Source: an uncultured Candidatus Saccharibacteria bacterium
GTDB lineage: Bacteria; Patescibacteriota; Minisyncoccia; Phycocordibacterales; UBA9973
Assembly: GCA_964520225.1 (NCBI GenBank)
Contig: CAZFNV010000005.1
Location: forward strand, 1-56,999
Length of the DNA: 56,999 nt
Direction of reading: 5' to 3'
Numbering within the stretch: position 1 is the first letter of the stretch; each line of letters opens with the position of its first letter. The notes under the pieces were generated by a model. It ran no database searches and was not told the origin of the DNA. It saw only the letters and a program-made list of their open reading frames with translations. Shown in pieces: positions 14,188 through 46,441 of the stretch. A program made the translations under genes and the position numbers.

Positions 14188-14271
14188 CTGATTTTACCCT
14201 GTAGTGAAACTTTTGCAAAGCTCCGTATTAAAAAAATTCTCCAGAAACGAAAGACACTGTGATTGTTTATA

Positions 14272-14607
14272 TCAAAGTTTATACAAATATTCTTTTATCC
14301 TATCTTTATCTTCATTTTCTTTTTCTCCTTTGAAATATACCTCTATGTACATAAATTTAATACTATTATTATGATACGCATAAATAAGACGGATTACTCG
14401 TGACCTTAATGATTCACAATGGACTCGTACTTTTATGATCGTTGTGTCACCTTCAATTTTAATTATAGTAAAATTCTTGCCGATTCCTGTAGGGCATTCA
14501 AGTAACACAGGCTTTATATCATCAATATCAGATAACAGTGTAGGATATTTCCTGGAAAGTTTTTTGAGTTCTTTTTCAAACTCAGGAAGCATAGAAAAAG
14601 TACTCAT
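14272..14607 (-). CDS. RelE/ParE-superfamily-like toxin (candidate PanT)
   Basis: 111 aa; FEKELKKLSRKYP...IIKVRVHCESLRSRVIRLIYAYH...IEVYFKGEKEN is the RelE/HigB-like pattern. It lies 5 nt downstream of the antitoxin gene. Confidence 0.5.
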   Translation of the reverse strand: MSTFSMLPEFEKELKKLSRKYPTLLSDIDDIKPVLLECPTGIGKNFTIIKIEGDTTIIKVRVHCESLRSRVIRLIYAYHNNSIKFMYIEVYFKGEKENEDKDRIKEYLYKL

Positions 14608-14612
14608 AGGAG

Positions 14613-15338
14613 TTAGTTGTCAGATACAGAAGTTTCGTCAGGGCGATAAAACACGTGTCTATAATTAAGTTCTTGCTTATCTTTTGCCACCCTCCAAGGT
14701 GTATCTTTGTGTGATAACTCAGACAATTCCTTCGCAGATTTTGAAGCCAAGCGAACAAGTTCGTCGTCAATATGTTTCAATTCTTGTGCAGACAACAAAG
14801 AAACATCTGGCTCTGATGTTACAAGATATTTCTTCTGATCATAATTAAAATGCTTGCTATTGACCTCAACCAGCTCACCCTCACTCTCCAAATCTCGAGC
14901 AATCTTCGCAAATGAAACCGGTGTAGGACCATACGTATTCCTAATATATTTTGCACCAATCAAATACCTTTGATATTTTTCATAATAATCAAAGTCTATA
15001 AAATAAAGGAGTTTATATAATGCGGTTTGCCCTATGTTTGGACGACTACCCACTTTACTAACAACATATAATAAAACTTGCTTGAAACGTTCAGTATTTT
15101 CTTTTGGAATTTCTTTTGGTTTAATTTCAAAATTCGTCTCCATATGAATATTTTCTTTCTCCGCTGTTTCTTTAGAAACACCGAAAATACTCGCCAAAAG
15201 CGCCTTTTGTTCTTCGGTTGGTTTGGACTCACCTTTTTCAAGCTTTATATACGTAGGACGAGAAATACCTAAAATCTTGGCGACTTCTGCTTGAGAAATA
15301 CCCGCCAATTTACGCTTTGTTTGTATCCAATTAGACAT
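14613..15338 (-). CDS. XRE-type HTH fused to a Panacea (DUF4065) antitoxin domain
   Basis: The N-terminal LAGISQAEVAKILGISRPTYIKLEKGE is the HTH. GQTALYKLLYFIDFDYYEKYQRYLIGAKYIRNTYGPTP is the DUF4065 signature. Confidence 0.75.
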   Translation of the reverse strand: MSNWIQTKRKLAGISQAEVAKILGISRPTYIKLEKGESKPTEEQKALLASIFGVSKETAEKENIHMETNFEIKPKEIPKENTERFKQVLLYVVSKVGSRPNIGQTALYKLLYFIDFDYYEKYQRYLIGAKYIRNTYGPTPVSFAKIARDLESEGELVEVNSKHFNYDQKKYLVTSEPDVSLLSAQELKHIDDELVRLASKSAKELSELSHKDTPWRVAKDKQELNYRHVFYRPDETSVSDN

Positions 15339-15375
15339 ATTAATATATTACCATAATATGCACATACTTATCAAC

Positions 15376-15395
15376 TTGACTGTGGATAATGTCAA
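15376..15395. promoter_or_regulatory. Inverted repeat in the XRE-Panacea promoter (candidate operator)
   Basis: TTGAC-N10-GTCAA lies upstream of TTGATA-N18-TAATAT-N6-ATG on the minus strand. Confidence 0.3.
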
Positions 15396-15549
15396 AATGT
15401 AAAATATGCGTATGGCAAAAATTAAAGGAAAATTAATACAAACAAATAACATTGGACCACTTCAGTATGTTAAAAGAAATAACTTGTCTGGTGATTTCTC
15501 GCATATTGTAAAAACTAAACAAATACCAAAAGGAAAGAAAAAGTCATAG

Positions 15550-15628
15550 CCCCCGCCTCAAAAATTTTCCGCCGAAAATTTTTAGGTGCAGTTTGCCTGC
15601 TTCTCCCATCCCGCCTACGGCGTGCTGG
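15550..15628. repeat. Repeat copy A: CCCCCG + A/T hairpin block, then a 41-bp block
   Basis: 15588-15628 (gcagtttgcctgcttctcccatcccgcctacggcgtgctgg) is identical 41/41 to 19187-19227. The hairpin block ctcAAAAATTTTCCGcCGAAAATTTTT is shared with 19084-19110 apart from one base. Confidence 0.85.
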
Positions 15629-15749
15629 CCTTGTGGCGCGAAGTTGGAACAATTGTAAGCCAATATCAAACATATGTCCATAAATAAACCAATTAAAAAA
15701 ACGGTCTGATTTTGTTGTATTTTTCCAGAAAAAGTATAATATCAACTAT

Positions 15750-16862
15750 ATGGAAAAGATCGAAAATACCACCACCTTACTTGACCCAATAAAGATCAAC
15801 TACTTCCACCCCGATAGCCTTCTTTTGGATGCTGAAAATCCTCGTTTTGCCGGCTTAATTGACTCAAAGGTTAGCAACAACGAACTCCTGAAAAAGCTCC
15901 GTAAGGAGATGTATTTGGACGAATTAATTGATTCTTTTCGAGAAAATGGTTATTACAATACCGAACCGCTTCTTGCCATAAAATCTAATAAGGATCCTAA
16001 AAAATTTATCATCATCGAAGGCAATAGAAGGCTCGCTGCTATTAAGTTGCTTTTGACTGACGAATTTAAAGGTAAAGTTGATAAGAAAATCATAAAGCAA
16101 CTTTCGACAGAAATTCCTGTTGCCGTATATCCAAGCAGAAAAACACTCTGGACTTATCTAGGTTTTAGACACATCAATGGGCCTAAAGAGTGGGATTCAT
16201 ACAGTAAAGCTGTATATGCACTGACGGTTCATGTTGAATATAAAATTCCCATAAAAGATATCGCTGACAAAATCGGCGACAAAAATCAAACTGTTGTAAA
16301 AATGTGTAATGGATTGAGATTATTACAACAAGCTGAAAAACAAGGTTATTTTTCTTCTGAAGATGTTGACTTAAAACGTTTTTATTTTTCTCACTTATAC
16401 ACTATTATTCAGAAAAATAACACTAAGAGTTTTTTAGGGCTTCCATCAAAGACGAATGAAGTATTCAAGGCAAATCCTGTATCCAAAAGTAAAATAAAAA
16501 ATTTACAACTTCTCTTAAACTTATTGTTTGGTAGCAAGGATGGTTCCGTAAAACCGGTTATTAAATCACAGAACCCAGATTTAAGAAACTTAGATGAAAT
16601 TATTGGAAATAAAAAAGCTTTAAAGTATCTTACTGAAAACAAGACAGAAAGTAATGTATTGGATAATGCTCTTAGTTTCACTGGAAGTGAAGAATCGGTC
16701 TTGGAAAGCCTTATGTTTAAATCTTTAAACACTCTAAGAAAAGCTAGCGGTATGCTATATAGTTACAAGGGGGATGATGAAACTTACAAAGAAGCCAAGG
16801 AAATAGAAACTGTTGCTAACTATATAGTTGCTCAGATGGAAATAAAGCGGAAGAAAAAATAA
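15750..16862 (+). CDS. ParB/Sulfiredoxin N-terminal-domain protein
   Basis: 370 aa; LLDAENPRF ... FIIIEGNRRLAAIKLL is the ParB-type GxRR box. TTGTTG-N17-TATAAT lies 9 nt upstream of the ATG. Confidence 0.6.
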   Translation: MEKIENTTTLLDPIKINYFHPDSLLLDAENPRFAGLIDSKVSNNELLKKLRKEMYLDELIDSFRENGYYNTEPLLAIKSNKDPKKFIIIEGNRRLAAIKLLLTDEFKGKVDKKIIKQLSTEIPVAVYPSRKTLWTYLGFRHINGPKEWDSYSKAVYALTVHVEYKIPIKDIADKIGDKNQTVVKMCNGLRLLQQAEKQGYFSSEDVDLKRFYFSHLYTIIQKNNTKSFLGLPSKTNEVFKANPVSKSKIKNLQLLLNLLFGSKDGSVKPVIKSQNPDLRNLDEIIGNKKALKYLTENKTESNVLDNALSFTGSEESVLESLMFKSLNTLRKASGMLYSYKGDDETYKEAKEIETVANYIVAQMEIKRKKK

Positions 16863-16863
16863 G

Positions 16864-17769
16864 ATGGCTGTTTTCATAGATTTACCTAAAATTCGTCAGA
16901 ATAATAAATTACAACTTTCTGACTGGATGGAAATAAGTGCTCTACTGGATAATTCCGATAATTCTTCCAGCCTTGAAGAGCTTATATCTCTTCTTAAGGT
17001 TTCTACTGATGATTCTGATGAGATCAGAGCGGATGTTTCTGCAGAGTTAATTTCTAGAACAAAAAAGCTTTCTACTGCATACCCTTTTTCGTTCAATGGA
17101 ATTATCCTCAAAGTAAAAAACCCTAAAGACTTTAGCAATCAATGGGCTTACATATTTTGTTTACTCATTTCTTATTTTGGTGTGAACAAGGGAGATTTAG
17201 GACTCTCACTCTGGAAACAAAAAGATGTTACTTCTTTATTTGAACACATTTCCACCATAGCAGCCAAACACTTTCTTTCCTCAAGTGAACATGAGGCAAA
17301 AGAGTTGAAATTTGGTTTTCCCAGAGATAGTTTAGATAAGAAATATAAATCTTTTAAAGCAGCACTAGAACTTTTAAAAAATGTAATTCAAGAAGGTACT
17401 CTTACTACTAATCCCAGCTATAGAAATCAAAAGGATGCTGGTCTTGATATTGTCGTCTGGAGAAATTTCCCTGATGGAAAAACAAATAAACTTTTACTAC
17501 TTGGTCAGTGTGCGGCTGGTAATGATTTTAAACAGAAAAGAAAAGATATACAAAAAATCGAAGGATTTTTCACTTTTCTCACAACCCCAATTAAAGGATT
17601 TTTTATTCCTCACGAGTTAGATGATGAAATATGGGGAGAACTTAGCTTTGATAGTTACATAGGAATTATATTTGATCGTAGTCGTATTGCATCTTACGCA
17701 AAAGCGTGGAATGGGCAAGGTTTTATATCGAATTTTGAGGCCATAAAGAACAAACTGAGGAAAAAATAA
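16864..17769 (+). CDS. Hypothetical protein, possible degenerate PD-(D/E)xK (Mrr-like) nuclease core
   Basis: 301 aa. It starts after a 1-nt gap from the ParB-like gene. DAGLDIVVW...LLLLGQCAAGNDFKQK resembles a D...QxK core, but the Lys position is Ala. Confidence 0.3.
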   Translation: MAVFIDLPKIRQNNKLQLSDWMEISALLDNSDNSSSLEELISLLKVSTDDSDEIRADVSAELISRTKKLSTAYPFSFNGIILKVKNPKDFSNQWAYIFCLLISYFGVNKGDLGLSLWKQKDVTSLFEHISTIAAKHFLSSSEHEAKELKFGFPRDSLDKKYKSFKAALELLKNVIQEGTLTTNPSYRNQKDAGLDIVVWRNFPDGKTNKLLLLGQCAAGNDFKQKRKDIQKIEGFFTFLTTPIKGFFIPHELDDEIWGELSFDSYIGIIFDRSRIASYAKAWNGQGFISNFEAIKNKLRKK

Positions 17770-17823
17770 TTGGCTGGCAATGGGTTGTGGCCATTTATAA
17801 TCTAATATGTTAAAATAAGCTTA

Positions 17824-18669
17824 ATGATTTATTCACCTCTGCGATATCCTGGAGGAAAAAATAAAGTCTCGAAGTTTATTCAAGATGAGGTTTTTAATGT
17901 TAACGATTTAAAGGGTGGTGTATATGTTGAGCCATACGCTGGAGGTGCTTCTGTTGCGTTAAATCTTTTGATAGAAAAAAAAGTATCAAAAATAATAATT
18001 AACGACTACGATAGATCGGTTTACGCTTTTTGGTATTCTGTTTTGAATGATACAGATGCATTTTGTGAAAAAATTAAAAAAGCACCCATTACAATAAAGA
18101 ATTGGAAAAAACAAAAAGAGGTACAAAAGCATAAAAAACAAGCTTCTCTTTTTGATCTTGGCTTTTCGACTTTTTTCTTAAATCGTACGAACCGATCAGG
18201 AGTGATCTCTGCTGGACCAATAGGTGGACTAAATCAGAAAGATAAGTGGAAAATTAATGCTAGGTTTAATAAAAAAAATCTTATTGAACGAATTAGATTA
18301 ATTGCTCAGCATAAAAATAATATAAAAATATATCAACTAGACGCGGTTAAACTTATTGAAAAGATTTCAAAAAAACTACCCGACAAAACACTTATATACT
18401 TTGATCCTCCTTACTATGTAAAAGGGCAAAAATTATACGTTAACTTTTATACGCATGAAGATCACATCTTAGTCGCAAATGCGGTAAAAGATATTAACGG
18501 TCCTAAGTGGATAGTTTCTTATGACAATGTAAAACCTATTGCTAATCTTTATACCAAATATAGAAAGAGAGTATATGACTTACCGTACAGTGTAATAAAT
18601 GGAACTACAGGAAAAGAAGTTATGTTTTTCAGTAAAAATCTAAAAATTAATTCTAAATTTCTTAGTTAA
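17824..18669 (+). CDS. DNA N6-adenine methyltransferase, D12 (Dam) class
   Basis: LRYPGGKNK, EPYAGGASVAL, FFLNRTNRSG and IYFDPPYY motifs. Confidence 0.85.
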   Translation: MIYSPLRYPGGKNKVSKFIQDEVFNVNDLKGGVYVEPYAGGASVALNLLIEKKVSKIIINDYDRSVYAFWYSVLNDTDAFCEKIKKAPITIKNWKKQKEVQKHKKQASLFDLGFSTFFLNRTNRSGVISAGPIGGLNQKDKWKINARFNKKNLIERIRLIAQHKNNIKIYQLDAVKLIEKISKKLPDKTLIYFDPPYYVKGQKLYVNFYTHEDHILVANAVKDINGPKWIVSYDNVKPIANLYTKYRKRVYDLPYSVINGTTGKEVMFFSKNLKINSKFLS

Positions 18670-18986
18670 TAGATGATACTTTTTTTAGCTACTTCTTTAA
18701 TTGCGTTAGCAATTTTTTCTAAATGAGTTTCGATTAACTGATTTGTAATTGATAGAGTATGGCATTTACTTTGGTCGGAATAATAAACACGGTTAAAGTC
18801 AAAAATAATTTGGAGTGGATTCGTGTAATGTTGTAAACCGTTAACTTCTATGTTCATAGGAACATCAGGGAGAAAAATATCTACATGCTTGTGCCCATCC
18901 CAGTATTCAAGCTGAGTTTTAATTCCTCGCTTATTTAATTCTTCAGCGAGTTTGAGAGTTTGTTTAGTTGAAATTATTTTTGGCAT
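18666..18986 (-). CDS. DUF559/Vsr-like small endonuclease-fold protein
   Basis: 106 aa; HVDIFLPDVPMNIEVNGLQH follows the DUF559 pattern (vDf...l.iEvDG..H). It overlaps the Dam gene's 3' end by 4 nt, convergently. Confidence 0.45.
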   Translation of the reverse strand: MPKIISTKQTLKLAEELNKRGIKTQLEYWDGHKHVDIFLPDVPMNIEVNGLQHYTNPLQIIFDFNRVYYSDQSKCHTLSITNQLIETHLEKIANAIKEVAKKSIIY

Positions 18987-19076
18987 AGACGCAAAAAGCC
19001 CATCACGGGTAGAGACCGAAGTCTCTCGTATTCGTTTCTAGATCTTGCTGGAACCCCAGGGCCCGCTCCGCATTCT

Positions 19077-19227
19077 CCCCCGTCTCAAAAATTTTCCGTC
19101 GAAAATTTTTGGACTGGGCACCTGCTCGTGGATTTTTATTGCTATAAAAATCACACTCCGCCGTTCTCGTCCTAGTCGCAGGCAAAGCAGTTTGCCTGCT
19201 TCTCCCATCCCGCCTACGGCGTGCTGG
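19077..19227. repeat. Repeat copy B: the same two blocks as copy A, split by a 76-nt GC-rich insert with extra hairpins
   Basis: 19077-19110 matches 15550-15583. 19187-19227 is identical to 15588-15628. The insert contains GTGGATTTTTAttgcTATAAAAATCAC and the palindrome gcaggcaaaGCAGtttgcctgc. Confidence 0.85.
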
Positions 19228-19281
19228 GTGTCTGGGATTGTATCCGAACGGAATTGTTGATAAATAAGGTTTAAAACTACT

Positions 19282-20385
19282 TTATACTCCAGACTTAGTT
19301 CGATTATCTTGTTTACATAACATCTGGCAATTTTCGGCTATAGTTTTTCCTCCTTCGTGCCATGGATTGATATGATCAGCTTCCATTTCTCCAATTGCAA
19401 ATTCCTTTTTACACACAGGACAAATACCATTTTGTCGTTCGTATGCTTCTCGCTTCATATTTGGTGTAAACGCTCGAATAGAGAGATATCTTTCTTTTCT
19501 AGTAAGCACATAAGGATAAATACCAGATTTTTTTGTTACATCTTCATTTTGCATTAATTCTTTAATTTCTTTTTCTAATTTTTTTGAATCAAGTTTTTTA
19601 TCCTTAAATGCATTGTAAAGTTCACCCCAATTTACACTAGACATCTCTTTTCTATAATTTGGAAAAGTTTCCCGCACCCAATGAATTACATTTTGAAAAT
19701 ATTTCCATAATGCGTCTGCGTTTTTATCATGCTGATGTTTTGCCATATAATCTTCTATCTTTTCATTATTTATCCACGATAAAGCAGTTTCTAGGTATTC
19801 TTGTCGAATAGGAGAACCTGTTATTAATTGTCCACCATCATTTGATAGTAAATATGCCACACAATTTGATTTACTAAATTTCAATTTTGCATCAGAAAGC
19901 CATGGGCCAGTATATACGGCATTTCTTAATTCTTGGTCAGTTAGTTTTTCACCAGCAATATTAATAATTTTAAACCAGTCAAGTTTTTCCTTATCGTTTC
20001 CTTCACAATGGTAAATCATAAGATCATAATTCATAATCTGATTTTGTTCTTCTTTGGTTAAATTATGAAACATTGCTATTCGTCCATTAAATTCAATAGA
20101 AAAATCTCCATTTACATATTGAGCGATACTGATTGTTCGTTGTTGTCCATCAAGCACTTCAAAATTACCATCTTCTTTCTTAACCCAATACATAACATTA
20201 AGCGGAAAACCATTTTTGATAGTATTTATCACTTCATCTCGTTGTTTTCCGCTATATACAAACTCTCTTTGGTATTTTGGGCGAATATCTAACTTACCAC
20301 CAAAAGCAGATACGCCTTCCTCGGCACTATCTTTATAGTTCTTAATAACTTCTGAAATTTTTATTTTATGTAAATTTATTTCCAT
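19282..20385 (-). CDS. DUF262 (ParB-like, GmrSD N-domain) fused to an HNH nuclease
   Basis: IRPKYQREFVY...FEVLDGQQRTISI is the DUF262 DGQQR box. The C-terminal CPVCKKEF...EADHINPWHEGGKTIAENCQMLCKQDNRTKS is the HNH. Confidence 0.8.
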   Translation of the reverse strand: MEINLHKIKISEVIKNYKDSAEEGVSAFGGKLDIRPKYQREFVYSGKQRDEVINTIKNGFPLNVMYWVKKEDGNFEVLDGQQRTISIAQYVNGDFSIEFNGRIAMFHNLTKEEQNQIMNYDLMIYHCEGNDKEKLDWFKIINIAGEKLTDQELRNAVYTGPWLSDAKLKFSKSNCVAYLLSNDGGQLITGSPIRQEYLETALSWINNEKIEDYMAKHQHDKNADALWKYFQNVIHWVRETFPNYRKEMSSVNWGELYNAFKDKKLDSKKLEKEIKELMQNEDVTKKSGIYPYVLTRKERYLSIRAFTPNMKREAYERQNGICPVCKKEFAIGEMEADHINPWHEGGKTIAENCQMLCKQDNRTKSGV

Positions 20386-20386
20386 A

Positions 20387-21556
20387 TTATTTTTGTGGTT
20401 TTTTATTTTTAATTAAAATTCTCATATAAACAACTTTTAATTCGCCATTTACATTAACAACTGGACCCCTATTAAGGTCATTATAATTTTTCGCATCTTC
20501 TATTGTATAAGTTTTTGTTCTTACACCTTCAGAGTTTTGTCTATCTGCTATCCAAATTATTTCAAACTGATCTGGGTTATATTTATCAAGAAAAGTAATT
20601 GGTACACCAATAACACCCTCATAATCCATTGGAATATCTGAAACTTTATTTACATTTATCGCTTCGTAGTTATCATACTTCGGATATTCTTTTGATGAAT
20701 ATTTTTTATAAAAAACCAAGTTTTCATGTCGCTTACCCGTATCAAGATTTGTATACCAATTTACTGCTGGAACTTTAACATACCCATCATTCGGGTTATA
20801 GCCTTTCCCTTTAACAAATTGCTTGTTGGCTTCAAGATCATTACTATAAGGAGTTTTATATACCATTGACATATTGAAACCATAACCAGACCATAATTTA
20901 TTTTCTTTTATCAATCTAAAAACTTCTTTATATGTAATTGCGTTCATATTTCCTAAAATTAAAAACTTCTTATTATATTCAATTAATTGAGCAACGTATT
21001 CTCTAAACAATGAAAATGGAGGATTGGTTACCACAATATCTGCTTGTTTTAAAAGCTCAACACTTTCTGGACTTCGAAAGTCTCCATCACCTTCCATTGG
21101 TGACCATTCGTTATTTTTATTTGATTTAAGTTGTTCAGCAATATCTCGCAAATCAAAAGCTCCATCGCCATCGAGATCATGAACTTCATTTATAATAAAT
21201 TTATTAGCATTCACTTTTGGGCGACCTTTTGGCGTACTAAGTGTTTTATTGTCACCAAATAATCCTAGTTGAGTATTAGCAATCGGTGATGGCTTGTAAC
21301 TCGTAGCGATAAGTTTCTTCAAACCTAAAGCATTAAAATTTGAGGCAAAATATTTAAAAAAATTACTTTCAAAAGGATCATCACAATTGCAATATACTAC
21401 CTTATTGCGAAACTGATCTTTGTAATGTTTTAACTCTTTTTCAATATCAACAAGCTGGGTATAAAACTCATCTTTTTTTGCTTGGTTAGCTTTGTGTAAG
21501 TTTTTGTTTGAAGATTTACTTTTCGTATTTTTAGCCATAAACCTATTATAACTCAA
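20387..21556 (-). CDS. N6-adenine DNA methyltransferase, M.EcoRI family
   Basis: As I recall M.EcoRI, the match runs along the length: KKDEFYTQLVDIEKEL, VVYCNCDDPFESNFFKYF, GDGDFRSPES, IVVTNPPFSLFREY, YPKYDNYEAINVNK, GVPITFLDKYNPDQFEI. Confidence 0.8.
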   Translation of the reverse strand: MSYNRFMAKNTKSKSSNKNLHKANQAKKDEFYTQLVDIEKELKHYKDQFRNKVVYCNCDDPFESNFFKYFASNFNALGLKKLIATSYKPSPIANTQLGLFGDNKTLSTPKGRPKVNANKFIINEVHDLDGDGAFDLRDIAEQLKSNKNNEWSPMEGDGDFRSPESVELLKQADIVVTNPPFSLFREYVAQLIEYNKKFLILGNMNAITYKEVFRLIKENKLWSGYGFNMSMVYKTPYSNDLEANKQFVKGKGYNPNDGYVKVPAVNWYTNLDTGKRHENLVFYKKYSSKEYPKYDNYEAINVNKVSDIPMDYEGVIGVPITFLDKYNPDQFEIIWIADRQNSEGVRTKTYTIEDAKNYNDLNRGPVVNVNGELKVVYMRILIKNKKPQK

Positions 21557-21582
21557 AAGGATATATAAAACTAAAGAAGAAT

Positions 21583-23022
21583 TTATTTATTAATTCCTAA
21601 CGTTTTCTTTGCTTTTTGTATAAAAATACTCATTTCTTTATCGTTTTCATAAGTATCTATAAAATCTTTTAAGATTATACTCCCTTTTTGCTTATCTTTT
21701 TTAAGGTATGTTACGAACCCTTCAATAAATATGAGATAAGGGTAAAAATTGGTTTTTTTTCTTCGCTCAATAAACTCAAAAACAGAATCAATTGATCCTT
21801 TTGACAATGAACCTCTTCTTAAAGCCTCATCATACAATTCAATTCCAGACTGAAATTTTTTATCTCGTTCAATTTTAAGAAATGCCTTACTTAATTTAAA
21901 GGATGCATCTTGTGGGTAGCGAGAAGCTTCTTCTAGGTGAGAATCAACTTTTTGTTCATACCCAGCACCTTTTAGGTAATAGTGGTGTGCTAAACTTAAG
22001 TTAGCATAATAATAATTCGGTTTGAATTCTAATGATTTCTCTTGATATTTTATGGCTTCATCAATATTGCCTTGACTGTAATAAAAACCGCCTATTAAAT
22101 TATTTTCTATTGCTAATAATTCTTTAGTTCTTGATAAGAGAGTTTTAAGATAGTATTCAGTTATACACCTAGGCTCTAATATTTGTAATAATCTTTCATG
22201 GTATTTCATAGCAACACCAACTTGTCCTGATACATATGCGGAAGAACCAAGAGAAAATAATATATTTTCTCTTATATTATCAGTAACTACTTCTAGTGCT
22301 CTCATCTCTTCTGCTACTGGGAAATCCCAAGGTTGAGTAATTAAAAAACTTGTAAATTCTTTACCCAAGTCTTCGCTAGTTTTTATATTGATTGGTTTGT
22401 GTTTTACGACATAATTAGGCTCTAGTTTGTAAAATTCCTTACCACCCTTGGATGATTTTTTTACTGATCCAAATAAAATAAAATTCCATTTTATTTTATC
22501 CATATTGACTTTCCATCTAGATTTTTTAAAGAGAGGATTCCAGAATTTATCTTTTTCCCTAATAATCTTTCTACTTTTATATTCATCCAACGATATAACA
22601 TGGAAAATATCTCCAAATCCTACATTACTAAGTGTGTCATCAATTTCTTTATAAATTTTAAAAATAAAAGATTTTGATTCCTTGTCCTCATATTTATTTG
22701 ATATCCCTATGTATACACCGACTTTATTTTTTGGGGTTTTTGGATATTTTATTTTTTGAAAAATTATTAAAAATAATAATAACCATATTAATGAAATTCC
22801 CCATAAATAAGTAAAGGTAATGTTGCTAGAAATATTACTTTGCAAAAAAATTTTATTTATCGTTACTGCTTCATGAAAAGTGGCTATAAAAGGAATAGAA
22901 AGTATACTTGTAAGTAAAATCACACCTAATGGTTTTTGCCAGTTATCTAAAAGCCATTGTTTTACATAAGTAAAAACAAAATCTTCTGCTTCTTTTTCTG
23001 TTCTCTTAAATATTCCGATCAT
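21583..23022 (-). CDS. Membrane-anchored TPR-repeat protein, function unknown
   Basis: 479 aa with two N-terminal TM segments and an unassigned central domain. The C-terminal repeats are TPR-like (GGFYYSQGNIDEAIKYQEKSLEFKPNYYYANLSLAHHYY). Confidence 0.55.
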   Translation of the reverse strand: MIGIFKRTEKEAEDFVFTYVKQWLLDNWQKPLGVILLTSILSIPFIATFHEAVTINKIFLQSNISSNITFTYLWGISLIWLLLFLIIFQKIKYPKTPKNKVGVYIGISNKYEDKESKSFIFKIYKEIDDTLSNVGFGDIFHVISLDEYKSRKIIREKDKFWNPLFKKSRWKVNMDKIKWNFILFGSVKKSSKGGKEFYKLEPNYVVKHKPINIKTSEDLGKEFTSFLITQPWDFPVAEEMRALEVVTDNIRENILFSLGSSAYVSGQVGVAMKYHERLLQILEPRCITEYYLKTLLSRTKELLAIENNLIGGFYYSQGNIDEAIKYQEKSLEFKPNYYYANLSLAHHYYLKGAGYEQKVDSHLEEASRYPQDASFKLSKAFLKIERDKKFQSGIELYDEALRRGSLSKGSIDSVFEFIERRKKTNFYPYLIFIEGFVTYLKKDKQKGSIILKDFIDTYENDKEMSIFIQKAKKTLGINK

Positions 23023-23051
23023 GTAATAATTTTTACTTTTTTACATTAATT

Positions 23052-24131
23052 TTAATCTTTTTCTTCTTTTTTCTTTTCATTTTTTCTTTCAGCTTTTAAT
23101 TTAAGTTTCATACCAGAAATTTCTAATACTTGAGATGCAGAAATAAATGCGGGATTATTCATCATTTTTAAACCTTCCACAAAACCTTTTGATTGTTCTT
23201 GGGTCGGCTCTCCTTTAACGATAGGATCAAGAAGGGTTTTTGTTATAGAAAATGTGTCATAAAAAAATGAGATGAAAGGATCGTGCCTTGCATCTTTAAA
23301 AGCATCCTCTGTAAAATACTTAACTGCTTCATCAAGACCCAAGAAAAGAATCTTGTCATTGTGATTATTTAAAATCTTAATTCCTTTTTTCTCAAAACTA
23401 GAGATGTAATTGGGTACATTTTGATTAATGTAATTTATGATATACCAACCCCAATCTTCCAATAAAATTTCATTTATTATTCCTGTGTCAGTAATGTAGA
23501 CTTTTTTACTTAACATACTTAAAGTTTTACCCATGTTCGTTTCATTTTCTGGTTCAGAAAAAATTTTAAAAACACCAATAGCCATACAAGTAAGTAATAG
23601 TTTCGGTTGAATGGTATTCAGTTTACTGAATTGTTCTTGAAATTCTTTAACATCTTCTTTCGGAATTTTATCTGATATTTCAATCTCGGCTTTAATCACA
23701 TCAATTGTATTATCTAAAATGTCTCCTTGTATAACCATAGTTCCCCAATCTTCTTCGTCTATGATTTTGTGCAATACGCTTTTATAAAGATTGGCAATAA
23801 ATAAATTATTACTTTCATTATCTTTTAAACCAAACTTAACTGCATATCTAGAAAAATTTCTTTCAATATTTTCTTTTTTGATTTGTGGTTCTTTTTTACC
23901 ACACTCACCCCTACAATCTAAATCACAACGATAATTTCTGTCTGAAACTCTAAGATAATGTTTTGATGAAGCAAATCTCAAAACACCCTTTTTAAAGAAG
24001 GGCGGTTTTGTTATTTCGTATGGTATTGTTTTTGGTTCTTTTTTCATTCCGCAAATAATATCCTTATTTTTTAAGGTTTTTGAAATTTTTCCTAAATTTC
24101 CGTCAAACCCCTCTTGGTATCGTATTCGCAT
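23052..24131 (-). CDS. Hypothetical protein (359 aa), Cys cluster near the N-terminus
   Basis: Long clean ORF containing CDLDCRGEC. No family was recognised. The true start may be the ATG at 24047 (MKKEPK), because the ATG at 24131 overlaps the divergent ATG at 24130. Confidence 0.45.
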   Translation of the reverse strand: MRIRYQEGFDGNLGKISKTLKNKDIICGMKKEPKTIPYEITKPPFFKKGVLRFASSKHYLRVSDRNYRCDLDCRGECGKKEPQIKKENIERNFSRYAVKFGLKDNESNNLFIANLYKSVLHKIIDEEDWGTMVIQGDILDNTIDVIKAEIEISDKIPKEDVKEFQEQFSKLNTIQPKLLLTCMAIGVFKIFSEPENETNMGKTLSMLSKKVYITDTGIINEILLEDWGWYIINYINQNVPNYISSFEKKGIKILNNHNDKILFLGLDEAVKYFTEDAFKDARHDPFISFFYDTFSITKTLLDPIVKGEPTQEQSKGFVEGLKMMNNPAFISASQVLEISGMKLKLKAERKNEKKKEEKD

Positions 24132-24275
24132 GTTATCGTTTAGTCAATTATTAGTCGAACGTATCCAAAAGTATTTCAAAAGGAAATATAACTTGGATAT
24201 TTCTGATGAAACAGCAAATGAATACCTGCATACGTTGGGCGGTATGTTTGCTGTATTTGCTGAAAGTGAGGGAAA

Positions 24276-24313
24276 GCCCCCGCCCGATTCCCTTTATGGG
24301 GACGGGCGGGGGC
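24276..24313. other. 11-bp GC hairpin, candidate replication origin / nick-site hairpin for the adjacent Rep
   Basis: GCCCCCGCCCG-attccctttatgggga-CGGGCGGGGGC, about 80 nt upstream of the Rep start. It is the only GC-rich patch in this AT-rich stretch. Confidence 0.4.
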
Positions 24314-24391
24314 AACCTCCACGCTCTCCCTGACTTGATAGTTGCCTTATATTAGACGACTAAGAATTATAAGACTTAATACTAAAGTTTT

Positions 24392-25309
24392 ATGGGCTAT
24401 AACAAATTTATTAGAAGTGGTAACCAATTAGAATTATATGAATATGAAAAAGATTTACCAATACGACGAACTCAACGAAAACGAAAGATTTTTCGTGGAC
24501 AATCAGTCGGAACTAGAACCTTCATTGGAAGATCAGAAGAAGGCACAGATACGCTTAGAGAAATTCTTGGCGGAGGAAGGATTCAAGACGAAAGAGAAAC
24601 AATTTCTTCCAGAGAAAGGGATATACATAGTGAGAATATTTCTTCTAGCGGAACAGATACACTTCAACTTCAACAATTTGCACAAAAGAAACAGCAGAAA
24701 CGCAGAGATAACGCACAACGCTCTGGAATGGCTTTTAGAAGAATCGTCTGTTCTAACCTTGAACCAACTGAAAACCCTTTACTCATTACTCTTACCCACA
24801 AAGAAAATCTCGGAGATATTTCCGAAAGCAACAGATTGTTTAAACTTTTTATCCAGCGTGCGAGAATTAAATACGGTAGAACGTTCCGCTACATTGCCGT
24901 ACCGGAATTTCAACGACGTGGTGCTGTTCATTATCACGCTTTGTTCTGGGGGCTACCTATTGAACTATACTATCGAGAACGGCAAACTCGTGAACTTGCT
25001 AACATCTGGGGAAACGGATTTACCGACATTGTTTTAACTGATGGAAATGAAAAACTTTCTTCTTACTTAGCAAAATATATGATTAAAAATTTACAAGATG
25101 AACGTTTATGGAATCAGAAAGTATATTTTTGTTCTCGTAATATTAAACGTCCAGTAATAGTAAGCGGTTTTGAGACTTTTAGGTTTATCGAGAAAGACTA
25201 TAATTTAGAAGCTCTTACTCCCGTTTTGGAGAGAAAATATGATACTCAATGGCTAGGCGAAGGTCGATATAGATTATTTGATGCTTCCAATTTAAAAAAT
25301 TTAGAGTAA
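24392..25309 (+). CDS. rep: HUH rolling-circle replication initiator (Rep_1/pC194-like)
   Basis: Motif 1 LLITLTHKEN, motif 2 GAVHYHALFWG (HUH), motif 3 SSYLAKYMIKN (catalytic Tyr), in the canonical order. Confidence 0.7.
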   Translation: MGYNKFIRSGNQLELYEYEKDLPIRRTQRKRKIFRGQSVGTRTFIGRSEEGTDTLREILGGGRIQDERETISSRERDIHSENISSSGTDTLQLQQFAQKKQQKRRDNAQRSGMAFRRIVCSNLEPTENPLLITLTHKENLGDISESNRLFKLFIQRARIKYGRTFRYIAVPEFQRRGAVHYHALFWGLPIELYYRERQTRELANIWGNGFTDIVLTDGNEKLSSYLAKYMIKNLQDERLWNQKVYFCSRNIKRPVIVSGFETFRFIEKDYNLEALTPVLERKYDTQWLGEGRYRLFDASNLKNLE

Positions 25310-25323
25310 TATCTTTAGTAATT

Positions 25324-26790
25324 ATGAAATACATTATTTACTGCCGAAAATCACAAGAAAACGAAGATAGACAAGTAATGTCTTTGGAATCTCAAGAATC
25401 TGAAATGTTGCAAATTGCTAAGAAAAATAATTTGGAAGTTTTAGAAATTCTCCACGAAAGCAAATCAGCAAAATCTTTAGGTCGTCCCGTTTTTGCTAAA
25501 ATGATGGACACAATTAAAAAAGGAAAAGCTCAAGGAATTATTTGTTGGAAACTTGATCGTCTCGCAAGAAATTTTATTGATGGTGGTTTAATTATTGATT
25601 CTCTACAAAAAGGAATTATTAAAGAAATTCGCACTTATGAATCCGTCCATTTTCCAAATGAAACTGTTTTTCTTTTGGCTATGCAATTCGGAATGGCTAA
25701 TCAGTACAGCCGAGATTTATCTACAAATGTTAAACGCGGAAATCGGGCAAAATTAGAAAAGGGTGAATGGCCTAATCATGTTCCACTTGGATATTTGAAT
25801 GACAAAGCTACTAAGACAGCCAAGATAGATAAAAAGTTTGCCCCGTATGTTGTGCGTGCGTATGAACTATATTTAACTGGTGGTTATACTCTTCCTCAAA
25901 TTTCACAAATTTTATATGACGAAGGTTTAAGAACTAAAACAGGTGGTATGTGTCGCTCGAATCAAATTCATAGATTTTTTATAAATCGTTTTTATTGCGG
26001 AATGATGGAACGAGACGGAAAAGTTTATAACGGAAATCATAAAGCCATTGTTTCTATTTCTCAATTTAATCAAGCTCAAGAAATTTTACATAATAGACAA
26101 CACCCACACCCTAAGAAATATTTTTACTCTGCTCAAGGATTTTTAAAATGTGAAAATTGTGGTTGTTCTTTAACTGTTGATACAAGGAAAGGACATCAAT
26201 ATTATTATTGCACTAACGGCAAAGGTAACTGCGAAGAACATAGATCTTATATGCGATCTGAATATGTAGATGAGATTTTATCTGAAATGTTTAAAGTCCT
26301 TGCATTTGATAAGGAAATTATTGAAATTTCATACCAAGCATATAAAGAGTTAAATATGCAGAAAGCGGACTACGTGGATACCAGTAAAGATAACCTCTTA
26401 AACGAGCTAAATGGGCTTCTAGACAAGGAATCTCTCCTTGTAGATAGTTATACTTCCCAAGTGCTTAGGAAAGAATTATACGAGCAAAAAATGCTTGAGA
26501 TTGATAATAGGCGAACTGAATTAAATAAACAATTGAAAGAAATTGAACTGAAGGGTGCTTTATCTGAATCTACTCTCGAACAGATCAAAAAGGTATTTTT
26601 AGATGGAAATACAGCGTCAGAAAAGTATTTGACGTTAAATGATTATGAAAAGAGAAAGATGCTAGAAAAGTTACTCTCGAACGCAACATTCAAAAGTAAA
26701 AATATTGTTAATTATCAATTCAAAAAGTTGTTTTCTCCTATGGCAAATACACCTAAAAATTGTGATTTGCCGACTCTGCTGGGAGACTAG
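25324..26790 (+). CDS. Large serine recombinase (integrase)
   Basis: The N-terminal resolvase domain is YCRKSQENEDRQVMSLESQ...DRLARN. It is followed by a recombinase domain, a Cys zinc ribbon (CENCGCSL...YYCTNGKGNCEEH) and a coiled-coil tail. Confidence 0.9.
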   Translation: MKYIIYCRKSQENEDRQVMSLESQESEMLQIAKKNNLEVLEILHESKSAKSLGRPVFAKMMDTIKKGKAQGIICWKLDRLARNFIDGGLIIDSLQKGIIKEIRTYESVHFPNETVFLLAMQFGMANQYSRDLSTNVKRGNRAKLEKGEWPNHVPLGYLNDKATKTAKIDKKFAPYVVRAYELYLTGGYTLPQISQILYDEGLRTKTGGMCRSNQIHRFFINRFYCGMMERDGKVYNGNHKAIVSISQFNQAQEILHNRQHPHPKKYFYSAQGFLKCENCGCSLTVDTRKGHQYYYCTNGKGNCEEHRSYMRSEYVDEILSEMFKVLAFDKEIIEISYQAYKELNMQKADYVDTSKDNLLNELNGLLDKESLLVDSYTSQVLRKELYEQKMLEIDNRRTELNKQLKEIELKGALSESTLEQIKKVFLDGNTASEKYLTLNDYEKRKMLEKLLSNATFKSKNIVNYQFKKLFSPMANTPKNCDLPTLLGD

Positions 26791-40274: not shown

Positions 40275-41378
40275 CTAGGCGCTCTGCTTGGTGTGGAGCA
40301 CATAAACCGCAAGCAGTGTGGTTATCGGCACGGTTAAAATAAGCCCGATACTGCCCACCACTGTTCGGATTATTTCCGTGGCAAATATTTCTTGGTTGAT
40401 AATATTACCTATCGAAGTATCGGAGAATTGAAAGAGTAGAAGTATAGGCAGAGCCGCACCAGTGTAAGCCAGAGCGAGAGTGTTGATCAGTGCGCCTATG
40501 TGATCCCGCCCTACACTCAGCGCTTTCTTGTATACATCGGTGCGTGATAAATGTGACGCAGAATCATAGATCTCTCGCACGACGGCGACTTGAGTTACAG
40601 CTATGTCGTCAAGTACACCCAAGACTCCGATCATCATCCCACCGAGCAGAAGCCCTGTGAAGTCTAGAGCCCCCTGTGTGCTCAAATTCAGATAAAAAGC
40701 TTCTTCGCTTATAAGGCCACTGAGCCGAGCAAGCCCAACACCAGCATACGCCAACACCCCGGTCATACACACTGCAACCGTTGTCCCCAGAAAAGCAACA
40801 GTAGTAGTTCGGCTGAAACCATGCGACAAATAAATAGCTAAAAATAAAATTACTATCGAAACGAGAATGCTAGTAGCAACTGGTGGGTAGCCGGCGAGTA
40901 ACCCAGGAATAAGGACGTACAGAATTACAAAAAAGCTACCGAATAGAGCGAGTAACGACCGCAGACCTTGCGCACCAGAGAAAATCAAAACAACTACAAT
41001 AAAAAGGCCGATGAAAAATAAAATCACCGACAAACGATCAACGTCTTTCACCGCATACACCTCCCTACCACTGAAAATATCGACACTATGATAAAGGAAA
41101 AATTTATCTCCCGCTTCGAGCGCTACATAGTCATTCTCCATCTCTACCACTTCCCCATTCCGCTCACCCTCAATTATCCGGACAGAGATAGTTTGGGAAC
41201 TGTGCTCTATATCTGTGCCTGGTATATTGCCTTTCGTCTCATTTAGAACCTCGAGCACCTCGGCCCGCAGTATTTCCACCTTGTCTGGCACGATCTCCTG
41301 CGCCAGAGAAAAAGCTGGCACAAAAAATAGAGCCAAAAAATATGCAATAAGAAATTTGCCGAAAAATTTAATTACCAT
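40275..41378 (-). CDS. YibE/F family membrane protein
   Basis: An N-terminal extracytoplasmic domain followed by about 7 TM segments. The ATG at 41378 is preferred over the TTG at 41393. Confidence 0.6.
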   Translation of the reverse strand: MVIKFFGKFLIAYFLALFFVPAFSLAQEIVPDKVEILRAEVLEVLNETKGNIPGTDIEHSSQTISVRIIEGERNGEVVEMENDYVALEAGDKFFLYHSVDIFSGREVYAVKDVDRLSVILFFIGLFIVVVLIFSGAQGLRSLLALFGSFFVILYVLIPGLLAGYPPVATSILVSIVILFLAIYLSHGFSRTTTVAFLGTTVAVCMTGVLAYAGVGLARLSGLISEEAFYLNLSTQGALDFTGLLLGGMMIGVLGVLDDIAVTQVAVVREIYDSASHLSRTDVYKKALSVGRDHIGALINTLALAYTGAALPILLLFQFSDTSIGNIINQEIFATEIIRTVVGSIGLILTVPITTLLAVYVLHTKQSA

Positions 41379-41407
41379 AATATTCACCCGCAACCTAAAC
41401 AGAAAAT

Positions 41408-41770
41408 TTATTTCTGGGATTTGTAGAAATAGTACAAAGCAAGAGGCGCAGCCCAGTTAGCAAATCTTTCGATGAAGTCCCATATTGGCATGCCCACTAG
41501 TGGCCTTACAAGAGCTGTCCAAAAACCCCAAAAAGCCATCCACAATAGAACAGGTCTTACTGGCTTAACTAAGACTAAAACTGCTAATAAAATATCCACT
41601 ACCCCAACCGCTAATATAAAAGTTGTAGCTGTTGCGGTATCGAGCCCAGTCAGTTGTTCAACCCATCTTATCCAATCAGCTTTCCCTAAAAGAGCGAAAA
41701 CTCCATGTCCTAAAAACTCGCCAGCAACACCAATTCTCAAAACCCATTCTAATTTTTTTGAATTAGTCAT
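41408..41770 (-). CDS. Small membrane protein (DoxX-like)
   Basis: 120 aa with four TM segments. Confidence 0.45.
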   Translation of the reverse strand: MTNSKKLEWVLRIGVAGEFLGHGVFALLGKADWIRWVEQLTGLDTATATTFILAVGVVDILLAVLVLVKPVRPVLLWMAFWGFWTALVRPLVGMPIWDFIERFANWAAPLALYYFYKSQK

Positions 41771-41868
41771 AAAAATAAATAATTAATAATTCCTATTAAT
41801 TATACTACTTTTTATTAAACTACCTAGCGCGACTTAGTGGATGGTGTTAGAACTAGTTTAATCCCCAC

Positions 41869-42294
41869 TTAGCGTACTTCTCCCAGGAAACGGTTATAAG
41901 TCTCTTGTTTATAAATATTTTGCTCCCCCTGTTCTTTTTGATATTCCGCATCATAAAAATAAAAAAAGGTTTCAGAAAAGATACTCTCGTTTGTAACAGC
42001 ATCAAAGATTACTTTTGTAATAGTATAACCATTACCAGCTGGATTACTCTCATATCCATTCCAAAGAACAACGCAACTACCTCTTTTTTTACTATAAAAA
42101 ATTTCATCGGGGTAAACATTGTCTATATCCCCGCTTGTGTAATAAGTACGTATACGCTCTGATGCTTGATTTTTAAATTCAGCACAGAATGCATTATTTT
42201 TTAATGAAGCACCCGAGAAAAACAATAAGAATACATTTAGGGATAGAGAAATAACGAGGACAATTGGCAACGAATCCCATAGTTTTTTATTCAT
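41869..42294 (-). CDS. Hypothetical anchored protein
   Basis: 141 aa with an N-terminal TM segment, in AT-rich DNA. Confidence 0.45.
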   Translation of the reverse strand: MNKKLWDSLPIVLVISLSLNVFLLFFSGASLKNNAFCAEFKNQASERIRTYYTSGDIDNVYPDEIFYSKKRGSCVVLWNGYESNPAGNGYTITKVIFDAVTNESIFSETFFYFYDAEYQKEQGEQNIYKQETYNRFLGEVR

Positions 42295-42485
42295 AGTTAG
42301 AGTTTAACAGACGGGGGTCATCAAGTCGAGTTTTCCAACGTTATAGAGATATGACATTTTCGCACATACTAAATGGTTAAAAACGTTAATAAACGGCAGA
42401 AATCATGGAAAATGGTGGATGACTCCCCTGATAAACAGGGCAATCACAGGGGATGGTCTAGGCTGAAGAACAGCATAGATAACAG

Positions 42486-42632
42486 CTAGGGCTTCTTTTT
42501 TATCACATCAAAATAATCTTCCAAAGAAAACTCTGCGAACTCATATAAGTAAGTCCTAATTTCTTCAATTTCCTTATCGGAATACTTTTCGCCACCACTC
42601 AACAATTCCCTACATTTATTGATCGATATCAT
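42486..42632 (-). CDS. Small ORF (48 aa), hypothetical
   Basis: MISINKCRELLSGGEKYSDKEIEEIRTYLYEFAEFSLEDYFDVIKKKP. It shows weak resemblance to the ORF at 24130-24333. Confidence 0.2.
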   Translation of the reverse strand: MISINKCRELLSGGEKYSDKEIEEIRTYLYEFAEFSLEDYFDVIKKKP

Positions 42633-42717
42633 GCTGTTTTATCAGTATGTTAATCTTCATATCCATATTTTCCAACATACTCAGGGTATTTTTTCTCGAA
42701 TTGACTCTCAAGTCAAA

Positions 42718-43380: not shown

Positions 43381-43428
43381 AATGTCTGTCTTTTAAAAAA
43401 CTTTTTAACCTCTATTAATTAAGCAAAT

Positions 43429-43938
43429 TTACTCGACAACTTTTGCTTTTTCTTTAATGGCGTCTTCCTCTTTTGGATACTTAGTAGTAATCCAATACCC
43501 CAAAGCCCTTACTCCGTAAATCATTGCTAAGTTTAAAACAATCATCAGAGCCGCCATTATTCCCCCGTTAAACAAAGCAACCAAGAAAGCTGTAAAAAAT
43601 ACCCCTAGTCCTAGGAAAATTATACCTACCAGAATTCCTATTATTCCCCAATACTGGTAAGTAATACCTAAGCAAAGCAACCAAAACAATGCTCCCCATA
43701 TATAGGTTAAATAATGAATACCGAGACCTGTATATATTCTCATCTTTGGCACCACAGAAATAAATACTAATAACAAAATTAGGCCAAACACCCATGTGTT
43801 TATCGCCGCAAAGAGATCAAAAAGATTTAAGAGGACCCAAAAACTTCCTTTCACGAAGAGAATAATACCCGCGAATACAAAAACCATAAGTATTAGGCCC
43901 GAACCTATTCCCCCTATTTCTTTAATTCTCTCAAGCAT
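43429..43938 (-). CDS. Polytopic membrane protein, hypothetical
   Basis: 169 aa with about 5 TM segments. Confidence 0.45.
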   Translation of the reverse strand: MLERIKEIGGIGSGLILMVFVFAGIILFVKGSFWVLLNLFDLFAAINTWVFGLILLLVFISVVPKMRIYTGLGIHYLTYIWGALFWLLCLGITYQYWGIIGILVGIIFLGLGVFFTAFLVALFNGGIMAALMIVLNLAMIYGVRALGYWITTKYPKEEDAIKEKAKVVE

Positions 43939-46435: not shown

Positions 46436-46441
46436 ACGGAT

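Follow-up and report, generated by a model that had tools for sequence, protein, structure and literature searches.

Three adjacent genes in a 56,999-nucleotide stretch of DNA from an uncultured Candidatus Saccharibacteria bacterium (contig CAZFNV010000005.1; the whole stretch is hereafter called the window) form a restriction-modification (R-M)-like module that is a sister of the phage defense system PD-lambda-5. The genes, here named A, B, and M, encode a protein resembling the cytidine triphosphate (CTP)-dependent clamps ParB, Noc, and KorB, a protein without a family name, and a DNA methyltransferase. Whether this trio is a two-subunit, nucleoside triphosphate (NTP)-gated restriction module with a protective methylase is, in our estimate, an even call, and this is the reading that we develop here. 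The genes are arranged in the order A-B-M on the forward strand, and our open reading frame (ORF) calls match positions 15750 to 18669 of the window:

15750-16862, forward strand: gene A, ParB/Noc/KorB-like protein of 370 aa
16864-17769, forward strand: gene B, unnamed protein of 301 aa
17824-18669, forward strand: gene M, D12-class N6-adenine DNA methyltransferase of 281 aa, the equivalent of PD-Lambda-5_B

Between the stop codon of A (TAA, 16860-16862) and the ATG of B there is a single base, and 54 nt separate B from M, which confirms the gene boundaries and gaps given in an earlier note on this DNA. That note had proposed an uncharacterized R-M-like system in which a ParB-fold protein and an unknown partner occupy the restriction slot, and the proposal is supported by the co-occurrence of the genes in other genomes and by a model of B that matches no known Type II family.

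Under the two-subunit reading, M would methylate host adenines and so mark self DNA, whereas A and B would jointly make up the restriction component. A would bind DNA, close or slide on it in an NTP-dependent manner, and recruit or license B to cut DNA that lacks the methyl mark. Catalysis would fall to B, as a PD-(D/E)xK nuclease with a "D...QxK" motif like that of Mrr and MspJI but with its lysine on the next helix. We infer that A and B form a complex, that methylation is protective, and that the module stops phage. A defense role fits the location of the trio in an island bounded by a tRNA-Gln gene and a serine recombinase gene, beside an R-M pair and a Panacea pair. It also fits the protection against phages conferred by PD-lambda-5, which is matched by M and by the N-terminal part of A.

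Co-occurrence of A, B, and DNA methylases

Related loci were collected by searching two conserved A peptides against one genome per species (185,579 genomes of bacteria and archaea), which yielded at least 554 confirmed A loci. The 80 loci analyzed are the best query matches among these rather than a random sample, and they come from Acidobacteriota, Chloroflexota, Planctomycetota, Verrucomicrobiota, Bacteroidota, Pseudomonadota, Nitrospirota, Patescibacteria, and other phyla. ORFs were called anew, and methylase classes were assigned by hidden Markov models (HMMs) built from Pfam-annotated seeds. Many of the loci are metagenome-assembled, and split genes in five of them (L024, L026, L063, L071, and L089) may be assembly errors and were not interpreted.

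B lies directly downstream of A in 77 of the 80 loci, or 77 of the 78 that can be assessed, since two of the exceptions are at contig ends. In the third exception (L040), the genes after A encode a C5 methylase and a HATPase_c_3 protein, the latter scored as a Type II restriction endonuclease (REase) by PADLOC. The A-B pair is obligate, and the distance from the A stop to the B start, mostly -4 to +12 nt, is of the translational-coupling type. A methylase is encoded within 500 bp of the pair in 64 loci (37 of the D12 class and 27 of the N6_N4 class) and at 0.5 to 3 kb, with one gene between, in five more. With four loci set aside as not assessable because they are cut by contig ends, a methylase is present within 3 kb in 69 of 73 loci (~95%; 42 D12 and 27 N6_N4). 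All-against-all clustering of the neighboring ORFs revealed no other family in more than three loci.

Look-ups centered on B found D12 methylases at two loci (L001 and L006) and N6_N4 methylases at two others (L003 and L005). The most divergent B, on a metagenomic contig (L094), is accompanied by a C5 methylase, as are the copies in phages Wphi and vB_PaeM-D14A, and a further locus (L095) has a D12 methylase upstream. This order of genes is found again in dozens of phyla and also in phage genomes, far more than chance could account for, and the co-occurrence on which the earlier note had hinged its proposal is in place. Moreover, the nearest neighbor of A shares its methylase class in 61 of 70 cases and that of B in 65 of 70, compared with an expected 48%. 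The A and B lineages thus track methylase class, as cognate restriction and modification genes should. The median nearest-neighbor identity is 62% for A and 54% for B.

Homologs of A were also detected by tblastn in the genomes of P2-like (Peduoviridae) phages. Phage Wphi carries an A-like gp98, a B-like gp96 (hhalign probability 98.7%, E-value 2.3e-16), and an adjoining convergent C5 methylase gene, and Pseudomonas phage vB_PaeM-D14A has the same arrangement (B-like protein, E-value 2.6e-18). The Wphi-type trio is present in 140 of 5,426 complete Escherichia coli genomes, with coverage of at least 80% at 99% identity or higher in 104 of them, and RefSeq labels its members "ParB N-terminal domain-containing protein," "hypothetical protein," and "DNA cytosine methyltransferase." These E. 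coli and Pseudomonas relatives sit among P2-like accessory genes, which in Wphi places them beside the phage replication gene A.

Predicted properties of the three proteins

Protein B has no match in Pfam, NCBIfam, or PADLOC even at an E-value of 10, in line with the earlier statement that no recognizable classical REase accompanies the methylase, and a B profile compared with PDB sequences gave nothing relevant. Assignment of B to a known restriction family or Pfam domain was rejected on these grounds. The family itself is large. An exhaustive profile search recovered 3,240 clusters at 50% identity, whereas an initial word-indexed search had recovered 29 proteins, falsely suggesting rarity. 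The best 150 listed matches are stand-alone proteins, nearly all of 280 to 350 aa.

An AlphaFold2 (AF2) model of B (predicted local distance difference test [pLDDT] 88.9, predicted template modeling [pTM] score 0.90) begins with a small helix/strand domain up to residue ~90. This domain may be a winged helix, given a few very weak forkhead/winged-helix matches (E-values of 1.5 or more). The rest of the model has the alpha-beta-beta-beta-alpha-beta order of a PD-(D/E)xK nuclease. A Foldseek comparison with the PDB gave the MspJI nuclease domain as the best match (4f0p, E-value 2.4e-3, probability 1.0, template modeling [TM] score 0.31), so that no known Type II family is recovered for B; such a family would, according to the earlier note, have made this an ordinary R-M system. 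The other PDB matches are all weak but consistent (NgoMIV, Ecl18kI, the Card1/Can2 nuclease domains, Bse634I, BamHI, and NucS), and comparison with the BFVD gave Mrr-domain, PD-(D/E)XK, UL24, and RPB5 folds, again all weak.

Residue counts for B refer to an alignment of 248 unique full-length family members. The segments that carry the candidate functional residues are as follows:

17239-17247, forward strand: F126-E127 in the first core helix (residues 119-138), with E127 the candidate metal-site glutamate (alignment and model)
17434-17448, forward strand: D191-AGL-D195 at the start of strand 196-201, the candidate "D" of D...QxK (alignment)
17503-17538, forward strand: G214-Q215-C216-A217...K225, with A217 replacing the QxK lysine and K225 in the next helix (alignment)
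17671-17685, forward strand: FDRSR, with R272 and R274 (both in 247 of 248 sequences)

The motif DAGLDIVVWR...LLLLGQCAAG (residues 191-219) contains D191, D195, and Q215-C216-A217. E23, R65, Y96, and D191 are present in all 248 sequences, D195 in 247, C216 in 241, and E127 in 240 (the remainder having Q or D), and R272 and R274 may act in DNA binding. A lysine is found at position 225 only in 221 sequences, at 217 only in 26, at both in none, and at neither in one, a tally that counts sequences rather than independent events because the 26 K217 sequences may be a single clade. The window protein belongs to the K225 class. Shifts of the catalytic lysine to a neighboring structural element are well known in the PD-(D/E)xK superfamily, and the alignment indicates that the QxK lysine of B has moved from 217 to 225.

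We read B as bearing an active site because the lysine is exclusive to one or the other of these positions and the acidic residues are conserved. This pattern argues that B is an active nuclease with a putative site comprising E127, D191/D195, Q215, and K225, and cleavage of DNA by B would be predicted from it; a degenerate, inactive nuclease was rejected in view of the lysine swap and the invariant acidic residues. Thus, of the Mrr-like D...GQC patch lacking a lysine that the earlier note had described, the missing lysine at the QxK position stands (A217), but the degeneracy does not.

Protein M was correctly described in the earlier note as a D12-class N6-adenine methyltransferase (Pfam PF02086, 8.9e-23), and its motif I (EPYAGGAS, residues 36-43) and DPPY motif IV (residues 194-197) are intact. 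It matches the PADLOC models PD-Lambda-5_B (1.5e-120, residues 2-277 on profile positions 4-277 of 291) and MTase_II (6.3e-100), and its nearest solved structure is 7m6b (4.4e-13). Relatives of M with 48-50% identity occur in a Streptococcus phage (L007, 2211-4846) and in Citrobacter phage phiNP (L008, 2122-4810), where they are paired with AAA/ABC ATPases of the AriA/PtuA/AbiL type of ~575-595 aa. These ATPases may be compared with the PADLOC PDC-M38A model, in which a ParB-like half is fused to an ABC ATPase.

Protein A consists, according to its AF2 model and alignments, of an NTP-binding-type N-domain, a central helix-turn-helix (HTH), and an additional helical C-terminal part. Pfam has no family for A, and the NCBIfam ParB partition domain matches it at 2.5e-08, below the model cut-off. 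Among the PADLOC models, PDC-M38A matches through its ParB-like half (1.2e-20), and the best PD-Lambda-5_A model matches the N-terminal part only (residues 22-117, 6.8e-17); other PD-Lambda-5_A models align A up to residue 176 and relatives of A up to ~250. The AF2 model, built from 46 homologs (pLDDT 87.1), has Noc as its best PDB match in Foldseek (7nfu, 1.6e-5), followed by KorB (8qa9) and CTP/CDP-bound ParB (7bnk/6t1f/6sdk), which bears out the ParB N-domain recognized in the earlier note. These alignments span 210-280 columns, corresponding to the N-domain plus the HTH, and sulfiredoxin aligns to the N-domain only. Across the 46 aligned homologs, 43 columns are invariant, among them D27, N30, R32, E90-R94, R140, H141, W148, and K153. 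Three segments of A are of particular relevance:

15834-15845, forward strand: ENPR, residues 29-32, at what we take to be the ParB box I position (D27, N30, and R32 invariant in two alignments)
16017-16040, forward strand: EGNRRLAA, residues 90-97, the GxxRxxA arginine patch (E90, G91, N92, R93, and R94 invariant)
16272-16295, forward strand: IGDKNQTV, within the predicted HTH (helices 150-163, 168-174, and 181-197 in the AF2 secondary structure)

Residues 90-101 read EGNRRLAAIKLL. In a profile alignment, the invariant GNRR of the A family falls on the GERRxRA of Caulobacter ParB and of Noc, and the GxxRxxA patch (ParB box II or P-motif) is predicted to bind NTP phosphates. The HTH segment gives a weak profile alignment with the ParB/Noc HTH, and its G176 and D177 are invariant among the 46 homologs, with serine at 177 in both phage copies. 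Residues ~240-370 form the extra helical region, a counterpart of which is absent from the truncated ParB structures. A is therefore modeled here as a putative NTP-binding protein, for CTP or another nucleotide; ParB-fold proteins can bind CTP, ATP, or GTP, according to a 2025 survey of the ParB-CTPase fold (PMC12704722).

Relation to known systems and competing explanations

In E. coli, PD-lambda-5 conferred protection from 9 of the 10 phages assayed, and its cloning needed a host without mrr (Vassallo et al. 2022; PMC9519451). It is reported to contain a HEPN domain, which, together with catalogued ParB-HEPN fusions such as Saro_3948 (PMC3710099), would place that domain in the C-terminal half of PD-Lambda-5_A. 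The likeness to the window trio is threefold: M aligns with PD-Lambda-5_B over its full length, A shares homology with the N terminus of PD-Lambda-5_A in its own N-terminal part, and both systems combine a ParB-like protein with a methylase on mobile elements. However, PD-Lambda-5_A is a single protein of 430-600 aa, whereas A has a different helical C terminus plus the separate nuclease B, and A aligns only to approximately profile positions 10-176 of the PD-Lambda-5_A models. True PD-Lambda-5_A proteins at three of our loci (L025, L059, and L067; 446-453 aa) match the model from end to end (1e-133 to 1e-157), and no other ORF in the window matches an HMM made from four PD-Lambda-5_A proteins. 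The window was thus rejected as PD-lambda-5 proper, as the HEPN-bearing full-length A is absent and there are three conserved genes rather than two. Two further candidates were discarded, namely B as a homolog of the C-terminal half of PD-Lambda-5_A (hhalign probability 0.3%) and a 265-aa Vibrio phage protein as a B homolog, which is a split C-terminal half of PD-Lambda-5_A.

Four loci contain a PD-lambda-5 pair immediately adjacent to A and B (L025, 3663-5944; L059, 8143-10403; L067, 3763-5982; L092, 8969-11209). In each, a full-length PD-Lambda-5_A of 446-457 aa is accompanied by a D12 methylase, the single methylase that it has in common with A and B. L092 is the closest relative of the window (B 79% identical), and its 457-aa neighbor is 25% identical to PD-Lambda-5_A (E-value 2e-21). 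These four-gene loci look like the uncompacted "RM+Abi" (R-M plus abortive infection) ancestor to which the discoverers of PD-lambda-5 alluded, and the window holds only the "RM" part of this form.

The trio resembles a Type II R-M system in having a stand-alone methylase with intact motifs beside a predicted restriction-fold nuclease, and in that the methylase class swaps among relatives while the nuclease lineage tracks it. The PD-(D/E)xK fold of B is predicted with high model confidence, with weak matches to solved REases. The trio differs from Type II systems in that B has an obligate ParB-like partner of the NTP-binding type and fits no known REase family model. Classical Type II enzymes need no nucleotide, and the obligate partner of B suggests nucleotide dependence. 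No helicase domain such as the SF2 helicase-like ATPase of the Type III Res subunit was detected in A or B. The MspJI/Mrr nuclease domains are like B in fold (4f0p being the best match), and the D-x19-QxK-type motif is canonical in 26 of 248 B sequences. Nevertheless, the TM score is only ~0.3, B has no SRA-like reader, the lysine has moved in most members, and the methylase context speaks against modification dependence. Like the ParB, Noc, and KorB clamps, including the ParB of ParABS systems, A has the N-domain with the box II GxxRxxA patch followed by an HTH. In place of their canonical dimerization domain, it has a C-terminal helical region of ~130 aa, and its partners are a nuclease and a methylase rather than ParA; no recurrent ParA neighbor and no conserved upstream palindrome that might serve as parS were found among the loci.

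Several observations weigh against a two-subunit restriction module. The structural likeness of B to known nucleases is weak (TM ~0.3). Four of the 73 assessable loci (L051, L054, L055, and L056) have no methylase within 6 kb and are surrounded by housekeeping genes, although their A and B appear intact and keep every key residue; such loci are uncomfortable for a classical restriction enzyme unless a methylase is encoded elsewhere in the genome. In other loci, the D12 methylase is already provided with a partner, either a NotI-family endonuclease (L072, L085, and L088) or the full PD-Lambda-5_A of the four-gene loci, and A and B look like an add-on there. The NotI-family and D12-class methylase genes are convergent to A and B (L072, 5795-7589; L085, 8420-10244; L088, 8137-10041), with NotI-family PF12183 scoring ~1e-47 for the first two copies and the L088 copy assigned by clustering only. 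Finally, a scan of A and B with strict thresholds, for which phylogeny is a confounder, revealed neither a hypervariable region for target recognition nor residues peculiar to one methylase class, and this leaves the reading of sequence or methyl mark without an explanation.

We tentatively propose, with a good deal less than even confidence, that A and B represent a new class of restriction enzyme in which a ParB-type nucleotide clamp, perhaps using CTP, loads at unmethylated sites, slides, and carries or activates an Mrr-like nuclease. If so, a clamp would license cleavage, in contrast to the helicase motors of Types I and III and the simple site binding of Type II. HEPN RNases in PD-lambda-5 and ABC ATPases in PDC-M38 would be further outputs of this clamp module, and ParB-like clamps would be a general sensor of methylation state in bacterial immunity.

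It is rather unlikely, in our judgment, that the trio is an ordinary Type II R-M system in which B alone is the endonuclease and A is a KorB-like repressor, acting in the manner of a C protein to delay B until the genome is methylated. Known C-controlled R-M systems have the C gene upstream of the R gene, and A is directly upstream of B and translationally coupled to it. A also carries an HTH, and its best structural matches include KorB, which is a CTP-dependent repressor clamp. Moreover, M may have its own promoter, and a 24-bp palindrome lies 190 nt upstream of A. However, no palindrome is conserved upstream of A in 13 related loci, and A, at 370 aa, is more conserved than B (62% versus 54%) with invariant NTP-motif residues. 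Relatives of its N-domain are fused to effectors, a presumed HEPN domain in PD-Lambda-5_A and an ABC ATPase in PDC-M38A, which indicates a role in an effector complex.

A guard or abortive infection module attached to a methylase, on the "RM+Abi" principle, is likewise an explanation to which we give little weight. A and B would then be a toxic nuclease pair that is restrained while M or host methylation is intact and is unleashed by a phage that blocks methylation or fills the cell with unmethylated DNA, so that the cell is killed or arrested. The loci in which A and B stand beside a full PD-Lambda-5_A and D12 methylase (L025, L059, L067, and L092) or beside a complete NotI-like R-M pair (L072, L085, and L088) would suit this explanation, as would the lack of an evident sequence-reading region in A or B. 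Yet in 64 of 77 loci, no genes recur other than A, B, and one methylase within 500 bp, which puts A and B in the restriction slot; no R-M system could be simpler than a DNA nuclease plus a methylase, and no phage-protein sensor domain was found.

A modification-dependent nuclease of the Type IV kind appears quite improbable as an explanation of A and B. They would be a split analog of GmrSD or SspE, with A as the NTPase and B as the nuclease, that attacks modified foreign DNA or responds to the mark of the host itself. GmrSD is defined by a ParB-clan NTPase domain joined to a nuclease, and host modification is what SspE senses. The trio would share with both the principle of a ParB-superfamily nucleotide-binding module tied to a DNA nuclease in modification-based defense, and the best structural match of B is MspJI, with an Mrr-type D...QxK motif. 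GmrSD has been described as ParB plus HNH (PMC12839542). GmrSD and SspE, however, are single polypeptides with an HNH-type DUF1524, whereas in the trio the nuclease is a separate protein of the PD-(D/E)xK type and the ParB-like domain is canonical rather than DUF262. GmrSD-like Type IV systems also come without a cognate methylase, whereas one is linked in ~95% of the assessable A-B loci. In Pfam, A has no GmrSD_N/DUF262 match, unlike the neighboring protein encoded at 19282-20385 (5.7e-19). The same A-B pair adjoins m6A (D12), N6_N4, and m5C (C5) methylases, a variety that a reader of a single modified base would not be expected to tolerate, and a Type IV enzyme beside a methylase would risk attacking its own genome. 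The modification-dependent alternative offered in the earlier note is therefore disfavored. We give almost no credence to a module without a defense function, either for maintenance or addiction of a mobile element (partition or silencing) or for DNA repair by a pair that travels with methylases: the HTH-bearing, ParB-related nature of A and the residence of the module on integrative elements and prophages would suit this view, but no ParA neighbor recurs in the loci examined, the partner is nuclease-fold with ~95% methylase linkage, and its relatives sit among P2-like accessory genes, with the tested relative PD-lambda-5 defending against phages.

The surrounding island and the significance of the module

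The trio lies inside a low-GC stretch at ~14-27 kb (GC ~0.27-0.39 versus ~0.44 elsewhere), and the contig outside it is an ordinary bacterial chromosome encoding RNase J, CTP synthase, GatA, SecD, and RodA. These surroundings, together with the low-GC element itself (~14200-26850), mark the trio as cargo of an integrative defense island. Features of the island and of the intergenic regions around the trio include the following:

15550-15628: left copy of a direct repeat, including the 24-bp palindrome AAAAATTTTCCGCCGAAAATTTTT
17774-17801, forward strand: CTGGCA-16-TATAAT between B and M, a promoter-like site from a consensus scan alone (10 of 12 matches)
19077-19227: right copy of the direct repeat, interrupted by a 72-nt insert
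24392-25309: rolling-circle Rep protein
25324-26790: large serine recombinase
26778-26849: tRNA-Gln, at the end of the low-GC element

The site in the B-M spacer may be a separate promoter for M; in that scan, promoter-like sites in the region were no more numerous than in shuffles. The direct repeat is GC-rich and flanks a cassette comprising A, B, M, and a 106-aa ORF, with 94% identity over 34 nt and 100% over 41 nt. Each copy contains the palindrome, the left one being that upstream of A. The palindrome is private to the window among the 14 loci compared, and no operator or parS-like palindrome upstream of A is common to the window and 13 related loci. Neither the rest of the window nor 93 loci nor two metagenome scans yielded a further copy of the repeat, and these searches gave no evidence of a dispersed element. 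Its RNA fold is ordinary (z-score -1.47), and an Rfam search over 13-28 kb gave the tRNA-Gln as its sole match. The repeat could represent cassette-insertion boundaries or a protein-binding site. The 106-aa ORF (18666-18986, reverse strand) is convergent to M and overlaps its stop codon by 4 nt. It was rejected as a fourth component, being missing from every other A-B locus and having no Pfam match at an E-value of 1 or below; its DIF...NIEVNGLQH stretch may resemble small DUF559/Vsr-like endonucleases.

Adjoining the trio is a second R-M pair (19282-21556, reverse strand) of two genes 1 nt apart, so that two distinct ParB-superfamily-based restriction modules stand side by side in the window. 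One gene (19282-20385) encodes a protein with DUF262 (GmrSD_N, ParB clan) and HNH domains that matches a PADLOC Type II REase model (3.9e-136), and the other encodes an EcoRI-like adenine methylase (PF13651, 1.3e-141). The element also encodes a 479-aa TPR protein (21583-23022) and a 359-aa protein without a family (23052-24131). On the other side of the trio (14272-15338, reverse strand), a 241-aa antitoxin with HTH_3 and SocA/Panacea domains (PF13274, 1.2e-15) adjoins a 111-aa ORF without a family match, and the two are probably a toxin-antitoxin pair at the island edge. A second lower-GC stretch (0.35-0.39) is found at ~41000-46500, beside tRNA-Met genes at 46203-46278 and 46442-46513.

No description of the trio of A, B, and a methylase was found in the literature searched, REBASE lying outside that search, and the accessible part of the 2025 ParB-CTPase fold survey makes no mention of the A-B pair (PMC12704722). 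ParB-like proteins in methylase contexts are known in outline, and there is a realistic chance that the trio is mechanistically new. Because B has no family model and is annotated as a hypothetical protein, defense finders would report an orphan methylase or miss the system.

The family is widespread, with at least 554 loci, 3,240 B clusters at 50% identity, and P2-like prophage copies in 140 of 5,426 E. coli genomes. The trio gives context to PD-lambda-5, and the Wphi version in E. coli makes the function of the trio directly testable in a standard laboratory host. If A and B form a nucleotide-gated complex, the trio would be a mechanistically distinct branch of R-M systems, and ParB/CTP-switch biology would gain a role in immunity.

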